From NCBI GenBank assembly GCA_043819555.1, contig JBDREQ010000079.1:1-7002 (forward strand): a DNA stretch of 7,002 nucleotides, in the 5' to 3' direction. The notes below the pieces were generated by a model. That model did no database searches and was not told the origin of the DNA. It was given only the letters and a program-made list of their open reading frames with translations. The DNA is from Candidatus Zixiibacteriota bacterium (GTDB lineage Bacteria; Zixibacteria; MSB-5A5; GN15; JAAZOE01). Each line of letters starts with the position of its first letter. The first letter of the stretch is position 1. This document shows, piece by piece, positions 1,018 to 7,002 of this stretch. The translations under genes and the position numbers were made by a program.

Positions 1018-1046
1018 TTGACATTTCTATTGAGTCTAACTATCTT
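1018..1046 (+). promoter_or_regulatory. sigma70-type promoter of the nhaR-like gene (predicted leaderless transcript)
   Basis: TTGACA (1018-1023), 17-bp spacer and TATCTT (1041-1046). The predicted +1 is at 1053-1054, which is the ATG. Confidence 0.65.
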
Positions 1047-1053
1047 CTTTGGT

Positions 1054-1950
1054 ATGGATTGGTTGAATTATCATCATCTTATGTATTTTTGGACGGTGGT
1101 ACGCAAAGGCGGACTGACTCCAGCGGCTGAAGAACTTCGGTTATCCCCTTCTACTGTCAGCACTCAAATTCAGCAACTTGAACATGTATTGGGATACAAA
1201 CTATTTGACCGATCAGGTAGGCAAATGATTGTCAATGATGTTGGTCAGGTTGTTTTTCGTTATGCCGAAGAAATTTTCTCACTTGGTCGTGAATTACAGG
1301 ATGCATTGGAAGATAGACCTGCCGAGAGACCAATTCGAGTTCAAATTGGCATAGCGGATGTTTTGTCGAAGTTATTCGTAGGCAAACTGCTGGCTCCGAT
1401 ACTGGGATCACCACAATCTTACCATTTGGTCTGTCGAGAAGATCATCCGGATAACCTGATTTCCCAGCTAATACTCCATGATCTTGATATCGTATTAACC
1501 GATTCGCCTTTAAGTCCAAACCTTAGAGTTAGAGGATTTAATCACCTTCTAGGCAGTAGCCCTCTCGCGGTATATGGTACTTCTTCAATGGTTGCGCGCT
1601 ATAAAGAAGACTTTCCAAAGTCGTTAAACGATGCTCCTTTCATACTGCCGGGCGATCGTTCTGAATTAAGGGGATCGCTTGAACGTTGGTTCGAATCTCA
1701 CAATATCCGTCCAAAAGTGGTTGCTGAGTGTGATGATAGCGCGTTAATCAAATCTCTTGGAAAGACAAATGTAGGGCTCTTTGTAGCTCCTCAAATTACG
1801 GGCAAAGAAACGATGCAACAGTACCGTGTCAAGGAGATTGGCTATCTTGAAAACATAGAGGAAAACTATTATGCAATCTCGATGGATAGGCGCATAAAAC
1901 ATCCGGCAATTCAGGCAATTGTTGAATATGCCAAGCGTAGCGTTTTTTGA
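1054..1950 (+). CDS. nhaR: LysR-family transcriptional regulator, NhaR type (298 aa)
   Basis: MDWLNYHHLMYFWTVVRKGGLTPAAEELRLSPSTVSTQIQQLE winged HTH plus NhaR-subfamily motifs (YAEEIFSLGREL, GIADVLSK, LDIVLTDSP, FNHLLG, FPKSLNDAPFILP, E.DDSALIK, YYAIS..RRIKHPA). Start moved from the track's TTG1018 to ATG1054 because the LNYHHL motif sits at the N-terminus of homologues. Confidence 0.88.
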   Translation: MDWLNYHHLMYFWTVVRKGGLTPAAEELRLSPSTVSTQIQQLEHVLGYKLFDRSGRQMIVNDVGQVVFRYAEEIFSLGRELQDALEDRPAERPIRVQIGIADVLSKLFVGKLLAPILGSPQSYHLVCREDHPDNLISQLILHDLDIVLTDSPLSPNLRVRGFNHLLGSSPLAVYGTSSMVARYKEDFPKSLNDAPFILPGDRSELRGSLERWFESHNIRPKVVAECDDSALIKSLGKTNVGLFVAPQITGKETMQQYRVKEIGYLENIEENYYAISMDRRIKHPAIQAIVEYAKRSVF

Positions 1951-1987
1951 GATTAACCGGTTATGTAATTATTGGAGGGTAGGAAAG

Positions 1988-3682
1988 TTGACTGAAAAAA
2001 ATAAAAAGAAGCTGATTTTGCCTGAGTCCTTGCCCTTTAAAGCCGAACATTATCGTGAGTGGCAGCAACGCCAGATAATGAGGATGGCTATTACATATTT
2101 GGCTCCGCTGATTATTCTGGTTGTTTACTTTCATTACCGATATATTGGTCTCGAGGCTGATAGTCATCGAATTCATCTAAGCGCTATTGCCGAACATCAG
2201 GCAAACACACTCGACCTGTTTATGTCAGAGCGCAGGGTAAACCTGGCGAATCTGGTGGATCATCCAAGATTCCTTGAATCACCAGTGTCTGAAGAAATGA
2301 CTGAATATCTGGCTGACCTGAAGCGCGTGAGCCAGGCATTTGTTGATATAGGATTCTTTGATTCCTCCGGCGCGCAAATTGCCTATGCAGGCCCCCATCC
2401 GTCTTTGGAGTCGCGCAACTACAGTAATGAGAATTGGTTCAAAACCTTAAAAGAGATAAAAAATAATTTTGTTATAACAGATGTATACCTTGGTTTTCGC
2501 CAACAACTTCATTTCACCATTGCGGTAAGCAGGACAATTGGCGATAGATTTTTAGCCCTCAGGGCTACTCTTGATCCGGCTCGTATGTTTGAATACATTG
2601 AATCCCAGCAATTGGCAGGTGATGTAACTACTTATATGATAAACCAAGAAGGCATTTACCAATTAGTTAAAGAGGAATTGGGATATCCTCTTGATAAATG
2701 TCCGATAATTGTTTCCTCGGACCAATCATCGGGTTTTGGCGAAATAAAATCAAAAAACGGTTCGCAACACTATGCTTTTTGGTGGTTGCACAATACCGAA
2801 TGGGCATTGATTGCGCAATCTATTCCCGGTACGGATTCATTTTTCAGTACCCCCAAATCTAAATCATTAATGGTATCATTGGCATTATTTCTAATCGCGG
2901 TCTTTGTGATTTTTAACAGAGCTGGAAAACTTGTGGAAATGCAAAAAGAGACCGATCAAACTCGGGCTCAATTGGAGCATGCCGCCAAGCTTGCATCAAT
3001 CGGAGAACTGGCCTCAGGAATAGCCCACGAGATAAACAATCCTCTGGCTGTAATAACTGAAGAGTCAGGTCTTCTTATGGATTACACTGATCCTCAGTTT
3101 GGACAAACCCTTGATCAGGACGACCTCCGAGAACGGCTTGATTCTATACAGGAGGCCGCTTTTCGATGTAGAGACATAACACGCAAGCTCCTCCGATTCG
3201 TTAGAAAGACCGATTTCGATCTACAGGAACACGATATAAATGATATAATAGACGGAGTCATAGATGATCTGCTTGGTCCCGAGATAAAGGTGTCAAGTAT
3301 TAACGTTGAACGAAGGTATAACCGCTCGCTGAGTAGGCTACGGACCGATGCCAATCAGTTACAGCAAGTGATACTCAACATAATTAATAATGCTGGCGAT
3401 GCAATCGGCGACAATGATGGCAAAATTACTATAAGAACGATGGGGCGGGGGAAAAATCTCGTAATCGCTATTACAGACACCGGACGTGGAATGACTCCGG
3501 ATGAGCTAGAAAAAGTGTTCCTCCCATTCTTCACAACAAAGGAAGTAGGTAAGGGTACTGGTCTCGGACTATCTGTCAGCTATGGTATAATCCGTGGCTT
3601 AGGAGGAGAAATAGAGGTTGAGAGTACTAAAGACGTTGGAACTACTTTTCGCCTGATTCTTCCGCTGAAACCAAAGCGTTGA
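1988..3682 (+). CDS. Membrane sensor histidine kinase: TM-Cache-TM-HisKA-HATPase_c (NtrB-like class), about 564 aa
   Basis: H-box LASIGELASGIAHEINNPL (His codon 3026-3028), N-box QLQQVILNIINNAGDA, G1 DTGRGM, F-box VFLPFFTTK, G2 GTGLGL. Two hydrophobic helices flank a dCache-like region (NWFK...ITDVYLGFR...HFTIAV). Start placed at TTG1988 behind SD GGAGGG (1974-1979); the track's 1919 start overlaps nhaR. Confidence 0.93.
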   Translation: MTEKNKKKLILPESLPFKAEHYREWQQRQIMRMAITYLAPLIILVVYFHYRYIGLEADSHRIHLSAIAEHQANTLDLFMSERRVNLANLVDHPRFLESPVSEEMTEYLADLKRVSQAFVDIGFFDSSGAQIAYAGPHPSLESRNYSNENWFKTLKEIKNNFVITDVYLGFRQQLHFTIAVSRTIGDRFLALRATLDPARMFEYIESQQLAGDVTTYMINQEGIYQLVKEELGYPLDKCPIIVSSDQSSGFGEIKSKNGSQHYAFWWLHNTEWALIAQSIPGTDSFFSTPKSKSLMVSLALFLIAVFVIFNRAGKLVEMQKETDQTRAQLEHAAKLASIGELASGIAHEINNPLAVITEESGLLMDYTDPQFGQTLDQDDLRERLDSIQEAAFRCRDITRKLLRFVRKTDFDLQEHDINDIIDGVIDDLLGPEIKVSSINVERRYNRSLSRLRTDANQLQQVILNIINNAGDAIGDNDGKITIRTMGRGKNLVIAITDTGRGMTPDELEKVFLPFFTTKEVGKGTGLGLSVSYGIIRGLGGEIEVESTKDVGTTFRLILPLKPKR

Positions 3683-3702
3683 TAAAAAAGGAGCTTTGAA
3701 AA

Positions 3703-4269
3703 ATGGCAGTAAAAAGGGCAAAGGATTTAATGGTTCCCCTAAGTGAATATCCGATTATTGATTCCTCAGCCACGGTCCTAGATGCCGTGATTAAGTTGAT
3801 CGAATCGCGCCGCAATTTTAAACCGGATAGGCAACCGTATCAAGCTGTTCTGGTAGCGGACAGAAATAATCAGATTATTGGAAAAATCGGGCAGTTTGCA
3901 ATTTTGAAATCTTTAGAGCCTCAAAGTCGGGTTTCACATGATCATGCCGCTCTTGAGAGAGCCGGTGTAAGCGATGAGTTAATGGAAACGGCGCTTGAGC
4001 ATACTCGGTCATTACAGCAAGGCTTAACAGATCTTTGCCCAGGAGCTTATACATTGCCGGCTCGCTCAGTAATGACTCCATTTAAAGAGCATGTTGATAT
4101 AGATACTCCTATCTGTGAAGTTGTTCATAAAATACTGAAATGGCAAACGCTTTCAGTTTTGGTCACCGAAGACAATTATCCGGTGGGATTAGTCCGTCTT
4201 TCAGATCTCTGCGATGAGGTTATGAGACAAATGCAACAAGCGGCCAAAAGCTTGGATGGCGAGGAATAA
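3703..4269 (+). CDS. CBS domain-pair (Bateman module) protein, 188 aa
   Basis: CBS hallmarks AKDLMVPLSEYPII, VLVAD...IIGKI, ARSVMTP...HVDIDTPI.EVVHKI and VLVTEDNYPVGLVRLSDL. SD AAGGAG at 3688-3693. Confidence 0.88.
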   Translation: MAVKRAKDLMVPLSEYPIIDSSATVLDAVIKLIESRRNFKPDRQPYQAVLVADRNNQIIGKIGQFAILKSLEPQSRVSHDHAALERAGVSDELMETALEHTRSLQQGLTDLCPGAYTLPARSVMTPFKEHVDIDTPICEVVHKILKWQTLSVLVTEDNYPVGLVRLSDLCDEVMRQMQQAAKSLDGEE

Positions 4270-4272
4270 ATT

Positions 4273-6306
4273 ATGGCGAAAATTTTGCTTGTAGATGATG
4301 AAAATAAATTCCGTTCTGATTTAGCGGAAAGATTAAATCTTCGCGGGTATGAAACGCTGGAAGCGGAAAATGGCGAAAGCGCGATCAAGGTTTCCAGAAG
4401 CGATTATGATATTGATGTAATATTATTAGACCTCAAAATGCCTGGTTTAAGCGGGGAGCAGACTCTCGAAGAAATAAAGAAATACAGACCTGCTGTTCAA
4501 GTAATCATGCTAACAGGGCACGGATCTATGGCATCGGCAATGGAGACCGGGCGATTGGAGGCTTTTGATTTTCTCGAGAAACCATGCGAAATTGAGAAGC
4601 TTATTCAGACTATTGAATCAGCCAGGGAAATGCGACCTCATATTATGGCGCGACATGAAATTCCTCAGGTGGAAAAGGGATCATTCAAGAAGTGGTTGAT
4701 AGGATCTCACAATTCGCGACCGGGCGTTTTAATACTTGGGGCATTGATTTTTGCAATTATGTTATTGGCGCCTGCGCCACAAAGGCTTTTGGATATATTA
4801 TCTGCCCCCAAAACCGGGGAAATTACAGACATTAATATGGGATTCTCCGGATACCGACAAATGAGTAACGGTGAGACTATTGCTGAATATTACAGTTATA
4901 AAAATAAAATGTATAAAACTGTAAAGGATTCCAACGGGGCCAATATTAAAGTGCAACAAACTCCCGCTGATGTCTCAAAAAAGGCGCGAATAATGTTGGC
5001 AACTTTGATTATTGCGGCTTTGTTTTGGGCTACCGGCGCAGTTCCGGTTGGCATAACGGCTCTGCTTGTAGGCGTGCCAATGTACTTTAGCGGGATACTT
5101 CGACCGGATGATATTGCCAAATCGTATGCAAAGGACGCCGTAATCTTTATATTTGGTGTTTTGGCGATGGCCGTAGCGATTGCCAAGACTGGCCTGGATA
5201 GACGGATTGGACTCCTTCTGCTGGGTTCGGCAAAAACGCTTCCTCGATTACTATTCATTTTTCTACCGCTTTTGGCTATGTCTTGTTCATTCGTATCGGA
5301 ACATGCCTTAGTTGCCTTTATTATGCCGCTTTTTATGATGGTTTATGTTACATCGATACGAGAGGCTGGGATCAAAAAGGATAGGGCCTTGGCAGTCATG
5401 TTTGCCCTTACTCTCTGTTTTACCGCCAATTCAGGCGGCCCAGGTTCGCCCGCTGCCGGAGGTAGAAATGCAATCATGATGGGTATTCTTCAAGATTATA
5501 ATATTGCTCCAACTTTCGGTGAATGGATGACCTATGGAATGCCATTTGTCCCCATCATGGCATTGACAATAGCCGCATATTTCTATTTGAGCTTTAAATC
5601 AAAACTCAAAGTCAAATCATTGAATGTCTCCGCTATAGTTCATAAAGCATCAGATCAGATTGGACCAATGAACAAGAATGAATATATTACGGCGGCCGTC
5701 CTAATAGGTGTAATAGCGTTATGGATCGGCGCTAGCGATACTTTTGGAATGGGAGGGCCGATTATTCTCGGTTTGGTCGCCCTGAATATTATGCGGGTGC
5801 TTAAATGGCGAGATATAACAAAGATTCACTGGGAAGTAGTCGCTTTATATGCCAGTGCGGCAGCCATGGGTAAAGGACTTGCAGAAACCGGTGGCGCATT
5901 GTTCCTGGCCGACGGTTTTCTCAGTATTCTTCCTGAATTTATGCGTGACGGTTCTGGCTTGGCGATGGCGGTAAGCTTGTTTACGGGAATTACGACCAAC
6001 TTCATGAGTGACGGAGCGACAGTGTCCGCAATTGGTCCAATAACGGTACCAATGGCAACAATCAGCGGCACCCATCCATGGATGGTCGGGTTCGCGACTG
6101 CATTTGCATCCTCATTCGCTCATATGCTGATTATCGGAACTCCATCGAATGCTATTGTATATGCGATGGCTAAAGATCCTGTTACTGGGGAGCAGTTGGT
6201 AAAATTATCTGACTTCCTAAAACATGGAGCAGTAGTTCTGCTATTGTCATTCGCTGTTTTGTGGGGTTGGACGATATTTGGATATTGGAGATATATAGGA
6301 TTTTAG
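4273..6306 (+). CDS. Fusion protein: N-terminal receiver (REC) domain plus SLC13/DASS-family anion transporter, 677 aa
   Basis: Residues 1 to about 119 form an intact REC domain (VDDE, phospho-acceptor D53 in LLDLKMPG, T81, K103-P). Residues from about 150 to 677 are a polytopic membrane domain with DASS motifs: LFWATGAVPVGITALL, AIAKTGLDRRI, GGPGSP, I.WEVVALYA...MGKGLAETG and AFASSFAHMLIIGTPSNAIVY. SD GAGG lies in the end of the upstream gene (3-nt gap). Confidence 0.92.
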   Translation: MAKILLVDDENKFRSDLAERLNLRGYETLEAENGESAIKVSRSDYDIDVILLDLKMPGLSGEQTLEEIKKYRPAVQVIMLTGHGSMASAMETGRLEAFDFLEKPCEIEKLIQTIESAREMRPHIMARHEIPQVEKGSFKKWLIGSHNSRPGVLILGALIFAIMLLAPAPQRLLDILSAPKTGEITDINMGFSGYRQMSNGETIAEYYSYKNKMYKTVKDSNGANIKVQQTPADVSKKARIMLATLIIAALFWATGAVPVGITALLVGVPMYFSGILRPDDIAKSYAKDAVIFIFGVLAMAVAIAKTGLDRRIGLLLLGSAKTLPRLLFIFLPLLAMSCSFVSEHALVAFIMPLFMMVYVTSIREAGIKKDRALAVMFALTLCFTANSGGPGSPAAGGRNAIMMGILQDYNIAPTFGEWMTYGMPFVPIMALTIAAYFYLSFKSKLKVKSLNVSAIVHKASDQIGPMNKNEYITAAVLIGVIALWIGASDTFGMGGPIILGLVALNIMRVLKWRDITKIHWEVVALYASAAAMGKGLAETGGALFLADGFLSILPEFMRDGSGLAMAVSLFTGITTNFMSDGATVSAIGPITVPMATISGTHPWMVGFATAFASSFAHMLIIGTPSNAIVYAMAKDPVTGEQLVKLSDFLKHGAVVLLLSFAVLWGWTIFGYWRYIGF

Positions 6307-6325
6307 AAATAGAAAGGAAAAAGCC

Positions 6326-6814
6326 ATGTCAGACAAAATTAAATTGTTGATTGTTGATGATGAGGAAAAATTTCTCGAGTCCATAGCCAAACGGCTTGAG
6401 ATGAGAGGTTTTGATGTTCGTACAGCGACGCGCGGAGCGCAAGCTGTGGAAATTGCACGAGAAGAGAAATTTGATCTTGCATTGTTGGATCTTAAGATGC
6501 CAGGAATGGATGGAAAGCAAGTATTGGAAATACTTAAGAAAGAACACAAACATATTGAAGTGATTATTCTAACAGGCCACGGTTCGATTGATTCAGCCAT
6601 TGAAAGTACCAAGCTTGGCGCTTTTGGGTATCTCCCCAAACCATATGAATTGGAGAAGCTGTTGGAAACCTTACAGCAAGCTTTCCAGGCTCGTATGGAA
6701 AAGAAGTTCAAAGTTGACCAAGCGAGAATGGACAAGCTCGCAGAGTTGGCGAAGGGACACAGTGCACTTGGCATCCTTCGCGAGATGAAACAGCTGGATG
6801 ACAGTGAGATGTAG
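6326..6814 (+). CDS. Stand-alone response regulator (REC domain plus ~40-aa helical tail, no DNA-binding domain), 162 aa
   Basis: LIVDDE, D55 in LLDLKMPG, T83 in LTGHGS, K105-P. SD AAAGGA at 6313-6318. Confidence 0.93.
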   Translation: MSDKIKLLIVDDEEKFLESIAKRLEMRGFDVRTATRGAQAVEIAREEKFDLALLDLKMPGMDGKQVLEILKKEHKHIEVIILTGHGSIDSAIESTKLGAFGYLPKPYELEKLLETLQQAFQARMEKKFKVDQARMDKLAELAKGHSALGILREMKQLDDSEM

Positions 6815-6862: not shown

Positions 6863-7002
6863 TGTACTGAACGATACTTAACTTGACAGTCACTTACCTC
6901 TGAGAGGTTTTTGGTTTAGGCCGTCAGTTTCTCTTCATTCTCCAGATTTGCATTATTTGCCAATTCCATTCCGTCAGTAAAAGTCTGAATCGGCGTTTTG
7001 CC
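6863..7002 (-). mobile_element. IS481-family insertion sequence, right end (continues beyond the window)
   Basis: Terminal sequence TGTACTGAACGATACTTAACTTGACAG (6863-6889) has the 5'-TGT end and the TGTA...ACTT...TGACAG pattern of IS481-family IRs. It lies just downstream of a transposase-like C-terminus on the - strand. Confidence 0.8.
6916..7002 (-). CDS. IS481-family transposase, C-terminal 28 aa (partial)
   Basis: Manual translation of the - strand gives GKTPIQTFTDGMELANNANLENEEKLTA* (stop 6918-6916). GKTP.QTF.D matches the G(K/R)TP..T(F/L).D tail of IS481-type transposases. Not in the ORF track. Confidence 0.75.
   Translation of the reverse strand, partial: GKTPIQTFTDGMELANNANLENEEKLTA

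Follow-up and report, generated by a model that had tools for sequence, protein, structure and literature searches.

A receiver domain fused to a DASS/SLC13-fold carrier in Zixibacteria: a candidate for post-translational two-component control of sulfate-type uptake

Introduction

Among described transporters, two groups come close to the protein with which this study is concerned, namely the carriers of the VcINDY/SLC13 family (NaCT, NaDC1/3, NaS1 and Drosophila INDY; TC 2.A.47) and the yeast carriers Pho90, Pho87 and Pho91. The latter carry a cytosolic regulatory SPX domain in front of the first transmembrane helix (TM1) of a dimeric elevator of the DASS fold, and the SPX domain has been reported to regulate Pho transport (review PMC12653687). 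The same plan, with a two-component receiver domain (REC) in the place of SPX, is seen in a gene at positions 4273-6306 (+) of a 7002-bp stretch of DNA from a Candidatus Zixiibacteriota bacterium. This stretch, referred to as the window, makes up an entire contig (JBDREQ010000079.1, C79); the assembly to which it belongs comprises 3.35 Mb at 97% completeness. We propose that the product, here called REC-DASS, is a DASS/SLC13 elevator carrier, likely for sulfate-type uptake, that is switched post-translationally through phosphorylation of Asp53 by the adjacent Cache kinase, and we give this proposal an even chance of being right. The architecture and topology of the protein, its conservation, its intact catalytic and transport-site residues, its linkage to a kinase gene and its restriction to apr/dsr genomes are observations.

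REC-DASS shares the SLC13 fold from TM1 to the C-terminus, including the helix-breaks of the PxNA type, in that its GGRNA and GTPSNA align to SPPNA and TPPNA of VcINDY. It differs from SLC13 proteins in the N-terminal REC, in an insert of 64 amino acids (aa) between TM1 and TM2, in the motifs SEH and SDG for the twin SNT motifs and in R398 for a proline. Structural alignment to a Pho90-type chain (8r35_B) superimposes model residues 136-677 on residues 404-875 (Z 35.2, 18% identity), and by analogy REC-DASS would work most like Pho90 and Pho91 as SPX-regulated DASS-fold carriers. In these eukaryotic proteins, SPX is read via a ligand and the partner Spl2, whereas REC-DASS would rely on a phospho-aspartate switch.

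Secondary-transporter domains inside two-component proteins are likewise known from CbrA and CrbS/MxtR, of which CbrA transports histidine (PMC7918813). CbrA is the mirror image of REC-DASS: its SSS (SLC5, LeuT-type) carrier sits on the kinase, or input, side, whereas the DASS carrier sits on the receiver, or output, side. The closest relatives of the REC itself are receivers of the NtrC1/DctD type, with which it shares a long helix alpha5 that runs into the linker; in NtrC1/DctD the output is of the AAA+/helix-turn-helix (HTH) kind, whereas in REC-DASS alpha5 leads into a membrane helix. Control of carriers by the modification state of small signalling proteins is familiar from inducer exclusion by EIIA-Glc and from GlnK-AmtB, and REC-DASS may resemble these systems in exerting fast post-translational control of uptake. 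EIIA-Glc and GlnK, however, are separate proteins of the phosphotransferase system and the PII family, while the switch in REC-DASS is a two-component receiver fused in cis.

Gene clusters of a related composition have been described in Desulfobacteraceae. A 2025 study (PMC11887813) reports clusters of a 'DASS-type sulfate transporter' with two-component systems, Cache kinases and CBS proteins, for which it proposes sulfate sensing and a second, CBS-mediated level of control; in Desulfosarcina variabilis (Dvar_38230/38430), DASS genes are accompanied by Cache kinases, response regulators and CBS genes, as here. A comparison from 2018 (PMC5840216) delineates a DASS clade Cii of sulfate reducers, including Desulfobacterium and Desulfobacula, with members that respond to sulfate and lengths of 474-691 aa, a range that takes in the 677 aa of REC-DASS. 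In both sources, sulfate as the substrate is deduced from abundance and expression, and regulation is placed at the formation of the transporter, by WalR-type regulators, whereas that proposed for REC-DASS is post-translational. The terms 'fused', 'fusion', 'receiver' and 'REC domain' do not occur in the main text of PMC11887813, its figures being outside this count, and 'receiver', 'regulator' and 'fused' are absent from the accessible text of PMC5840216. A full-text literature search, with response-regulator censuses outside its scope, returned no paper on a receiver-transporter fusion.

A single gene for receiver and carrier

The REC-DASS gene is one frame of 677 codons that starts with ATG and contains no stop. 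Its translation matches Pfam Response_reg (PF00072) over residues 4-114 with 88.1 bits (cut-off 30.2) and Na_sulph_symp (PF00939) over residues 230-673 with 125.1 bits (cut-off 27), the latter being overlapped by a CitMHS match over residues 250-610. An original prediction, made from the bare sequence, had described just such an uninterrupted frame with an intact receiver and a full DASS membrane domain, and the open reading frame (ORF), its translation and the Pfam matches bear this out: D8, D9, D53, T81 and K103 can all be counted on the translation, and the membrane domain is complete by its Pfam match and by structural alignment from TM1 to the C-terminus. The statement that characterised DASS proteins lack a REC also stands, as no receiver is present on any matched solved DASS structure.

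Relatives were drawn from 5.8 billion clustered proteins and the 120 best considered. They are 68-93% identical to the window protein, nearly all of them 677 aa long, and PF00072 and PF00939 occur together in 118, the other two being shorter entries. The architecture is thus common, as a check of its prevalence was meant to establish, and it makes up three clusters of the ESM Atlas (92, 107 and 59 members). To judge by source names, the fused genes come mostly from Candidatus Zixiibacteriota bins, with closed chromosomes among them. Database entries call the protein 'response regulator', 'anion permease' or 'SLC13 family permease', in keeping with the suspicion that the architecture might already be deposited and uncharacterised; it is widespread and annotated, and it is unstudied.

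Since the window stands alone as a short contig in an assembly of metagenome type, and since unfused pairs of a REC gene followed by a DASS gene do exist in paralogous modules, one might suppose that a small response-regulator gene and a permease gene have been joined by an error of assembly or sequencing. This supposition is refuted by the recurrence of the same 677-aa frame in 118 of the top 120 relatives, whose varied origins take in closed chromosomes, a finding that also answers the question whether orthologues are always two genes, and by full-length matches (residues 1-677) in 31 of 151 genomes sampled from the phylum. The junction, for which a search for stops and frameshifts had been recommended, contains neither: a 7272-nt contig from an independent public run spans window positions 3602-6366 with 170 substitutions and no gaps. 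The independent-run contigs compared are relatives at about 94% identity or lower and thus represent a strain other than the source. Among public sequencing runs, no RNA run was listed as containing the sequence, and the DNA runs listed contained only a small share of it. We regard an artefact as practically out of the question; the REC-DASS architecture is real, intact and under selection.

Receiver, linker and first membrane helix

All sequence-based and fold-based tests assign REC-DASS to the REC superfamily. Its phospho-acceptor D53 is encoded at 4429-4431, the aromatic switch residue F100 is present beside D8, D9, T81 and K103, and none of the 29 close fused sequences in alignment A1 deviates from the D-D-D-T-K quintet. 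Two distant fused forms, P0123 (659 aa) and P0126 (695 aa), have the degenerate pockets NCETK and ESDTK and may be pseudo-receiver versions of the same architecture. The receiver of NtrC1 (1zy2) matches the fused REC with an E-value of 2.6e-21 at 34% identity. An AlphaFold2 (AF2) model of REC-DASS, built from a 59-row alignment (mean predicted local distance difference test score, pLDDT, 86.9; predicted template-modelling score 0.73), has the strand and helix order of the (beta-alpha)5 fold; its REC aligns with Z 20.1 to the phosphorylated NtrC1 REC (1zy2_B) and with Z 20.7 to 3jte over 125 residues, at a root-mean-square deviation (rmsd) of 1.7 A. Helix alpha5 is long, extending over residues 107-129.

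Between the receiver and the membrane, the original prediction had placed a basic linker of about 30 aa. The length is right, as residues 119-149 comprise 31 aa in 72 of 74 full-length orthologues and 30 aa in the other two; the picture of a loose basic tether is not, as the linker is conserved like the REC. Across the 74 orthologues, the majority-residue fraction is 0.68-0.77 in the linker, 0.72 in the REC, 0.58 in the insert and 0.81 in the core. Fixed length and REC-like conservation argue for mechanical coupling. In the AF2 model, pLDDT falls below 50 at residues 129-135, which are followed by a small juxtamembrane helix.

The membrane domain starts neither directly behind a plain linker, near residue 150, nor at residue 230, the first residue of the Pfam match. 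Instead, the helix at residues 150-165 (pLDDT about 91-93) is TM1 of the DASS fold, and an insert (167-230) follows. Structural alignments with VcINDY, NaCT and NaS1 begin at model residues 136-148, and in P0128 and P0132, two relatives without REC, the alignment sets in at query residue 140, so that TM1 and the insert are retained there. The N-terminus of DASS carriers is cytoplasmic, as known for VcINDY, so that the REC would lie inside the cell and the insert in the periplasm. The insert measures 64 aa in 62 of the 74 orthologues, is the least conserved part of the protein and forms, in a prediction of good confidence, a small folded element; P0164 is an example of the unfused relatives in which it is longer, at about 130 aa.

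Several relatives (P0164, P0149, P0137, P0153, P0174 and P0230) have 120-180 extra N-terminal residues, which were considered as further cytosolic regulators. The idea was rejected for P0164 and P0149 on their sequences, in which TM1 is preceded by a short cytosolic stretch and followed by a long loop in the periplasm, and Pfam found no match on the N-terminal extensions of the relatives. REC and Usp (P0129) are the only cytosolic N-terminal modules seen among relatives.

The linker also bears on what the receiver acts upon. Phosphorylation could set the amount, assembly or location of the carrier, by way of dimerisation, proteolysis or clustering, and leave the transport cycle itself ungated. 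Receivers that act as phospho-dependent adaptors or localisation devices are known (RssB and CpdR were matched weakly and over the REC alone), dimerisation is obligatory in DASS proteins, and RECs of the NtrC1 type change their dimer state on phosphorylation. A conserved linker of fixed length leading to TM1 nonetheless fits allosteric coupling better than it fits a tag, and the flanks contain no conserved gene for a protease or an adaptor (62 ORFs from 16 loci were scanned). We therefore hold a role of this kind to be very unlikely.

The transport core and its site

By sequence, VcINDY matches REC-DASS with an E-value of 2.6e-23, which provides a residue-by-residue alignment. The model shows the 11-TM elevator fold with two re-entrant hairpins and aligns to solved structures with Z 34-40 and rmsd 2.4-2.8 A over 431-458 residues. 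Model residues 141-674 superimpose on residues 18-462 of VcINDY (5uld; Z 34.5, rmsd 2.8 A) and residues 148-677 on NaCT (8uvb; Z 40.1, rmsd 2.4 A, 431 residues); Foldseek gives template-modelling scores, by target, of 0.80-0.81 to both. The model is nearer to entries titled inward or inhibitor-bound (rmsd 2.4-2.8 A) than to those titled 'outward' (6-7 A).

The SNT motifs of VcINDY form its Na+ and substrate sites. In the first hairpin, ISNTA of VcINDY aligns to VSEHA, with S342-E343-H344 encoded at 5296-5304, and in the second, ASNTA aligns to MSDGA, with S579-D580-G581 encoded at 6007-6015. GSPPNA of VcINDY aligns to GGRNA, which puts R398 (5464-5466) at a VcINDY proline. Judged by these alignments, the site chemistry of REC-DASS differs from that of every matched solved DASS protein. 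All 29 close fused members of A1 have the elements SEH, GGPGSPAAGGRNA, SDG and GTP[SN]NA, and SEHAL, GGPGSPAAGGRNA, TNFMSDGATV and AIGPI are among only 7 stretches that are at least 95% conserved across the 74 orthologues. Variants of the form [ST][ED]H ... SDG ... R-N recur in many unfused relatives of 460-620 aa. The strong conservation of the site elements, together with their presence in unfused relatives, argues that the membrane part has been selected as a carrier and not as an anchor.

Co-occurrence with sulfate reduction

Zixibacteria have been described as having the full reductive Dsr set, including dsrD (PMC10591310). The genome of the window encodes dsrA (577.9 bits against a cut-off of 392.85), sat (383.5 against 322.95) and aprA (891.5 against 641.75), and its dsrB is a below-cut-off match of the dsrA profile that adjoins dsrA. 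By gene order, and by the sat, aprA and dsrAB of its host, the window falls into the cluster type reported in PMC11887813. Fused orthologues in the Desulfobacteraceae-labelled loci L079-L085 are 58-60% identical to the window protein.

In the phylum sample of 151 genomes, carriers of REC-DASS were counted at E <= 1e-60, aprA at E <= 1e-100 and dsrA above cut-off. The gene is present in 36 genomes (31 full-length, 5 partial or broken), dsrA in 55 and aprA in 54. All 36 carriers are among the 55 dsrA-positive genomes, against none of the 96 without dsrA, and all 36 are also aprA-positive. In three genera (g20, g23 and g30), the single genome with dsrA is the single genome with REC-DASS (G059, G043 and G055). 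A second sample of 121 genomes, from the class around an Acidobacteriota-labelled carrier (G153), repeats the pattern, with REC-DASS in 9 of 24 dsrA-positive and 0 of 97 dsrA-negative genomes. Carriers labelled as other phyla have dsrA above cut-off in 4 of 5 cases, the exception being a Fibrobacteria-labelled bin; G153, the centre of the second sample, is one of the four. Near the operon itself, an APS kinase gene (APS, adenosine 5'-phosphosulfate) and a DsrC-like gene lie directly upstream of the kinase in L043, and a TauE/SafE gene is found in L068.

This strict co-occurrence with the genes of dissimilatory sulfate reduction points to sulfate, not to a dicarboxylate. The carrier could still be phospho-regulated and transport something else, such as phosphate, an organic di- or tricarboxylate or some other ion that these anaerobes use. 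Dicarboxylates and citrate, as well as sulfate, figure in the name of the family, the solved proteins nearest in sequence are VcINDY and SLC13 proteins, there is a match to the CitMHS profile, and dCache kinases often sense carboxylates or amino acids; the E/D/H/R chemistry of the site, moreover, is unlike that of NaS1, which is sulfate-bound according to the depositors' titles. On the other hand, the confinement of carriers to dsr genomes (36/36 and 9/9, against 0/96 and 0/97), the sulfur genes adjoining the operon in L043 and L068, and the loss of both SNT motifs through which VcINDY binds carboxylate all speak against another substrate, which we consider unlikely.

The operon and its partners

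REC-DASS is the third of four genes on the same strand, separated by gaps of 3-20 bp, in the order kinase, CBS, REC-DASS, REC2 (Table 1). The kinase is a separate protein, as no HisKA or HATPase match occurs in the REC-DASS polypeptide. Its Pfam domains are dCache_1 (85-298), HisKA (362-430) and HATPase_c (477-584), its translation contains the H-box AHEINNPL, and its start may lie slightly downstream of the TTG at 1919. The CBS gene ends 3 bp before the start of REC-DASS. REC2, a stand-alone receiver 47% identical to the fused REC, yields no significant match other than PF00072 and carries a C-terminal tail of about 45 aa, ARLxKKFxxDQxRMxKLAKLATGxSALGILRxMRxLDD, that is conserved across phyla. 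The tail corresponds to no Pfam family or known output domain, and its conservation nonetheless suggests a specific binding partner for REC2. Neither the fused REC nor REC2 has a DNA-binding domain by Pfam, and no AAA+ or HTH domain follows the fused receiver, which sets REC-DASS apart from the NtrC family; the AtoC, GlrR, PgtA and NtrC models match only the REC part (1 to about 145), far below their cut-offs.

Table 1. Features of the window, in order of position
Feature	Position	Strand	Remarks
LysR-family regulator, NhaR-like	1018..1950	+	NF008284, 238.7 bits against a cut-off of 219
Sensor histidine kinase	1919..3682	+	two TM helices flanking a periplasmic dCache_1; HisKA, HATPase_c
CBS-pair protein	3703..4269	+	188 aa, cytoplasmic; Pfam CBS in two stretches, best 121-173
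REC domain of REC-DASS	4273..4659	+	residues 1-129, NtrC1-like; Pfam 88.1 bits
Linker, second part	4660..4719	+	residues 130-149; conserved juxtamembrane motif KWLxG...RPG
DASS TM1	4720..4770	+	residues 150-166, cytoplasm to periplasm; AF2 and structural alignment
Periplasmic insert, TM1-TM2	4771..4962	+	residues 167-230; two short helices and a beta-hairpin (AF2)
DASS/SLC13-fold core	4963..6306	+	residues 231-677 and stop codon; PF00939, 125.1 bits
REC2, stand-alone receiver	6326..6814	+	162 aa; PF00072, 108.9 bits, nothing else significant
Terminator-like hairpin and T-run	6896..6918	+	consensus scan, after REC2; possible operon end, weak

Synteny was assessed by searching the window proteins with tblastn in 80 loci, one genome per species. 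Upstream of REC-DASS, a kinase homologue is present in 63 of the 64 loci whose sequence extends 2500 bp or more in that direction. Where the flanks suffice, the CBS gene is found directly upstream in 60 of 73 loci and REC2 directly downstream in 68 of 75, and 48 of 61 contain the complete set of four in this order. Loci without the CBS gene are for the most part Desulfobacteraceae-labelled or belong to one further subgroup, and REC2 does not follow the fused gene in L079, L080, L083 and L085 (Desulfobacteraceae-labelled) or in L046, L050 and L074. Beyond these four genes the flanks vary (62 of 111 flank ORFs, in 16 of the 80 loci, were scanned). Elsewhere in the genome of the window (L003, G000:C15), a CBS gene for 174 aa (2972-3496, -) directly precedes an unfused DASS gene for 509 aa (1399-2928, -), and its product is 35% identical to the window CBS protein over 74 residues; CBS and DASS genes thus pair independently of REC.

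Evolution of the fusion

A tree of 65 receiver domains comprises 29 fused RECs (28 from the 80 loci and that of the window), 24 REC2s, 6 receivers of neighbouring modules and 6 others. The fused RECs form one clade (100/95) and so do the REC2s (100/99), and the two are sister clades. Together with the free RECs of unfused kinase-REC-DASS modules, which were seen in L043, L079 and L085, they make up a larger clade (95/88; starred in the tree) that leaves out four other receivers and takes in one long-branch receiver of the window's own genome. In some loci such an unfused module, with a dCache kinase, one or two free receivers and a DASS protein of 618-619 aa, comes right after the fused operon (L079 and L085, about 8250-12600; in L043, the module and the sulfur genes upstream of the kinase together occupy 1840-3107 and 8580-13065).

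The kinship of the two receivers is relevant to a rival reading. Here, REC-DASS would be a transceptor or flux sensor: occupancy of, or flux through, the DASS domain would tune phosphorylation of the fused REC, which would serve as a substrate-dependent phosphate sink or as a partner of the kinase, and the real output would be phosphorylated REC2, with its tail acting on some target. REC2, with its highly conserved 45-aa tail and no known domain therein, is present in 68 of 75 loci, and the likeness of the two sister RECs is greater in alpha1 (0.59) than in the whole domain (0.45). As the alpha1 region of receivers is usually the region of kinase contact, the two probably compete for one kinase. 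Transporters are established as co-sensors of kinases, for instance DcuB and DctA with DcuS, and in CbrA an SSS transporter domain is even fused to the kinase (PMC7918813). Against this, the kinase of the operon has its own periplasmic dCache sensor and needs no transporter for its input, conservation of the transport-site motifs equals that seen in unfused carriers, and the loci named above lack a REC2 gene behind the fused one. We think a transceptor improbable, and favour the reading in which the receiver controls the carrier.

For the carrier itself, a DASS-core tree was calculated from 49 of the 59 rows of A1, with ten near-identical orthologues dropped and the REC columns excluded. It contains one main, all-fused clade of 23 rows (Shimodaira-Hasegawa-like approximate likelihood-ratio support 99), whose neighbours are REC-less forms, the Usp-fused P0129 and P0123 with its degenerate REC, while the distant fused P0158 sits on a long branch. 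The REC label changed at least three times on this tree. That receiver and carrier occur both split and fused, and that cytosolic N-terminal modules were swapped repeatedly, supports a functional connection of the two.

A few individual cases deserve mention. In P0129, a metagenomic protein of 692 aa and 47% identity, a Usp domain replaces the REC and the SEH, SDG and GGRNA motifs are the same. Two damaged copies may be decay or split forms: the orthologue at G081:C13:16278-18310 is broken by two TGA and two TAA codons in its N-terminal half, and in the single-contig genome G084 (C1) the carrier part (231-677, 73% identity, in a 495-aa frame) lies about 680 kb from a part comprising REC, TM1 and insert (1-271, 56% identity). 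In the window's own genome, G000:C65 (about 1826-2149, -, and 3358-4857, +) holds a 428-aa ORF with a receiver, which falls on a long branch with the REC2 and module RECs and adjoins a gene for a 734-aa SulP protein; this may be another pairing of signalling and transport.

Other features of the window

The LysR gene ends 32 bp inside the annotated kinase frame with its TTG start. Of the 80 loci, no more than three (L010, L013 and L016, the closest ones) have a LysR homologue upstream, and the gene is outside the conserved unit. A conserved link to Na+/H+ antiport, suggested by the NhaR-like LysR protein, by a Na_H_Exchanger gene downstream in L010 and by NhaA upstream in L061, was rejected because LysR is limited to these three loci; the orthologue of the L010 exchanger in the window's own genome is on another contig, away from the contig edge.

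The first kb contains a 130-aa ORF (541-933, -) with no Pfam or NCBIfam match and otherwise no called gene, and a palindromic terminator-like hairpin lies at 487-503. Terminator-like sites in the window number 7, against 5.4 +/- 2.5 in shuffled sequence, and the promoter scan likewise gave no more hits than expected.

Proposed mechanism

According to the proposal, the adjacent membrane kinase would sense a periplasmic ligand through its dCache domain, autophosphorylate, and hand its phosphoryl group on to two acceptors in parallel, D53 of the fused REC and REC2. The ensuing change in the REC would be the usual T81/F100 switch, probably with altered REC-REC pairing beneath the DASS homodimer, and would be relayed through the fixed-length linker to TM1 and the scaffold, whereby the elevator movement would be permitted or blocked. 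The CBS protein would supply a second, cytoplasmic input, namely an adenosine-nucleotide/APS-type or an ion signal. The sensed signal thus probably switches the uptake of a solute, likely sulfate, directly, and the substrate is most likely sulfate or a close sulfur oxyanion. It is important to point out that in this scheme we infer the partner in phosphotransfer, whether the effect is to switch on or off, what is carried and with which coupling ion, and every contact.

A number of points weigh against the proposal. The literature searched holds no experiments on any REC-DASS member, and the low confidence of the AF2 model at residues 129-135 means that no contact between REC and carrier is supported. 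While Pfam and structure both place REC-DASS in the DASS fold, its score against the NCBIfam model for DASS family sodium-coupled anion symporters (TIGR00785) is 180.7 bits, below the cut-off of 198.6, and SEH and SDG stand where the twin SNT motifs would be expected. Acidic residues such as E343 and D580 are odd for the binding of a dianion, and with the SNT motifs replaced they leave the substrate and the coupling ion open; going by residue type, E343, H344 and D580 could equally fit coupling to H+. Within the phylum sample, 19 of the 55 dsrA-positive genomes do without REC-DASS, and the genome of the window has two SulP and two further DASS genes, so that the carrier is neither necessary for nor unique to the uptake of sulfate. 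The co-occurrence counts stem from related, non-independent genomes and from metagenome bins, which can be incomplete or mixed, and as aprA and dsrA are nearly co-extensive (54 against 55 genomes), sulfate is inseparable from sulfite and thiosulfate on these counts. Finally, the strong conservation of the REC2 tail implies that the signal also goes elsewhere, with the fused REC perhaps on a side branch.

A more specific version of the proposal, tentative and on balance rather doubtful in our estimation, is that in sulfate respirers of several phyla the Cache kinase reads external sulfate and gates the carrier within seconds, that REC2 signals in trans to unfused DASS or SulP carriers, and that the CBS protein vetoes uptake according to the adenylate or APS state. 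If true, this would provide a basis for the rapid switch-off of high-affinity sulfate accumulation, which Stahlmann et al., as cited in PMC5840216, are said to have described in 1991 in the course of the physiological work of the 1990s.

Perspectives

The response regulators known are mostly transcription factors, enzymes or protein-binding switches, and a receiver joined to a carrier in cis would add the direct control of membrane flux to this repertoire. The SEH/SDG/Arg site defines a large DASS subfamily with a chemistry beyond that of the matched solved structures, and for work on its transport cycle the fused receiver would be a natural handle with which to lock an elevator carrier in defined states.

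Sulfate uptake influences the rates of sulfate reduction in sediments. Confined as it is to apr/dsr genomes, REC-DASS is a candidate for regulating the first step of sulfate reduction without the synthesis of new protein, in uncultured Zixibacteria as well as in organisms whose genomes are labelled Acidobacteriota, Calditrichota and Desulfobacteraceae.

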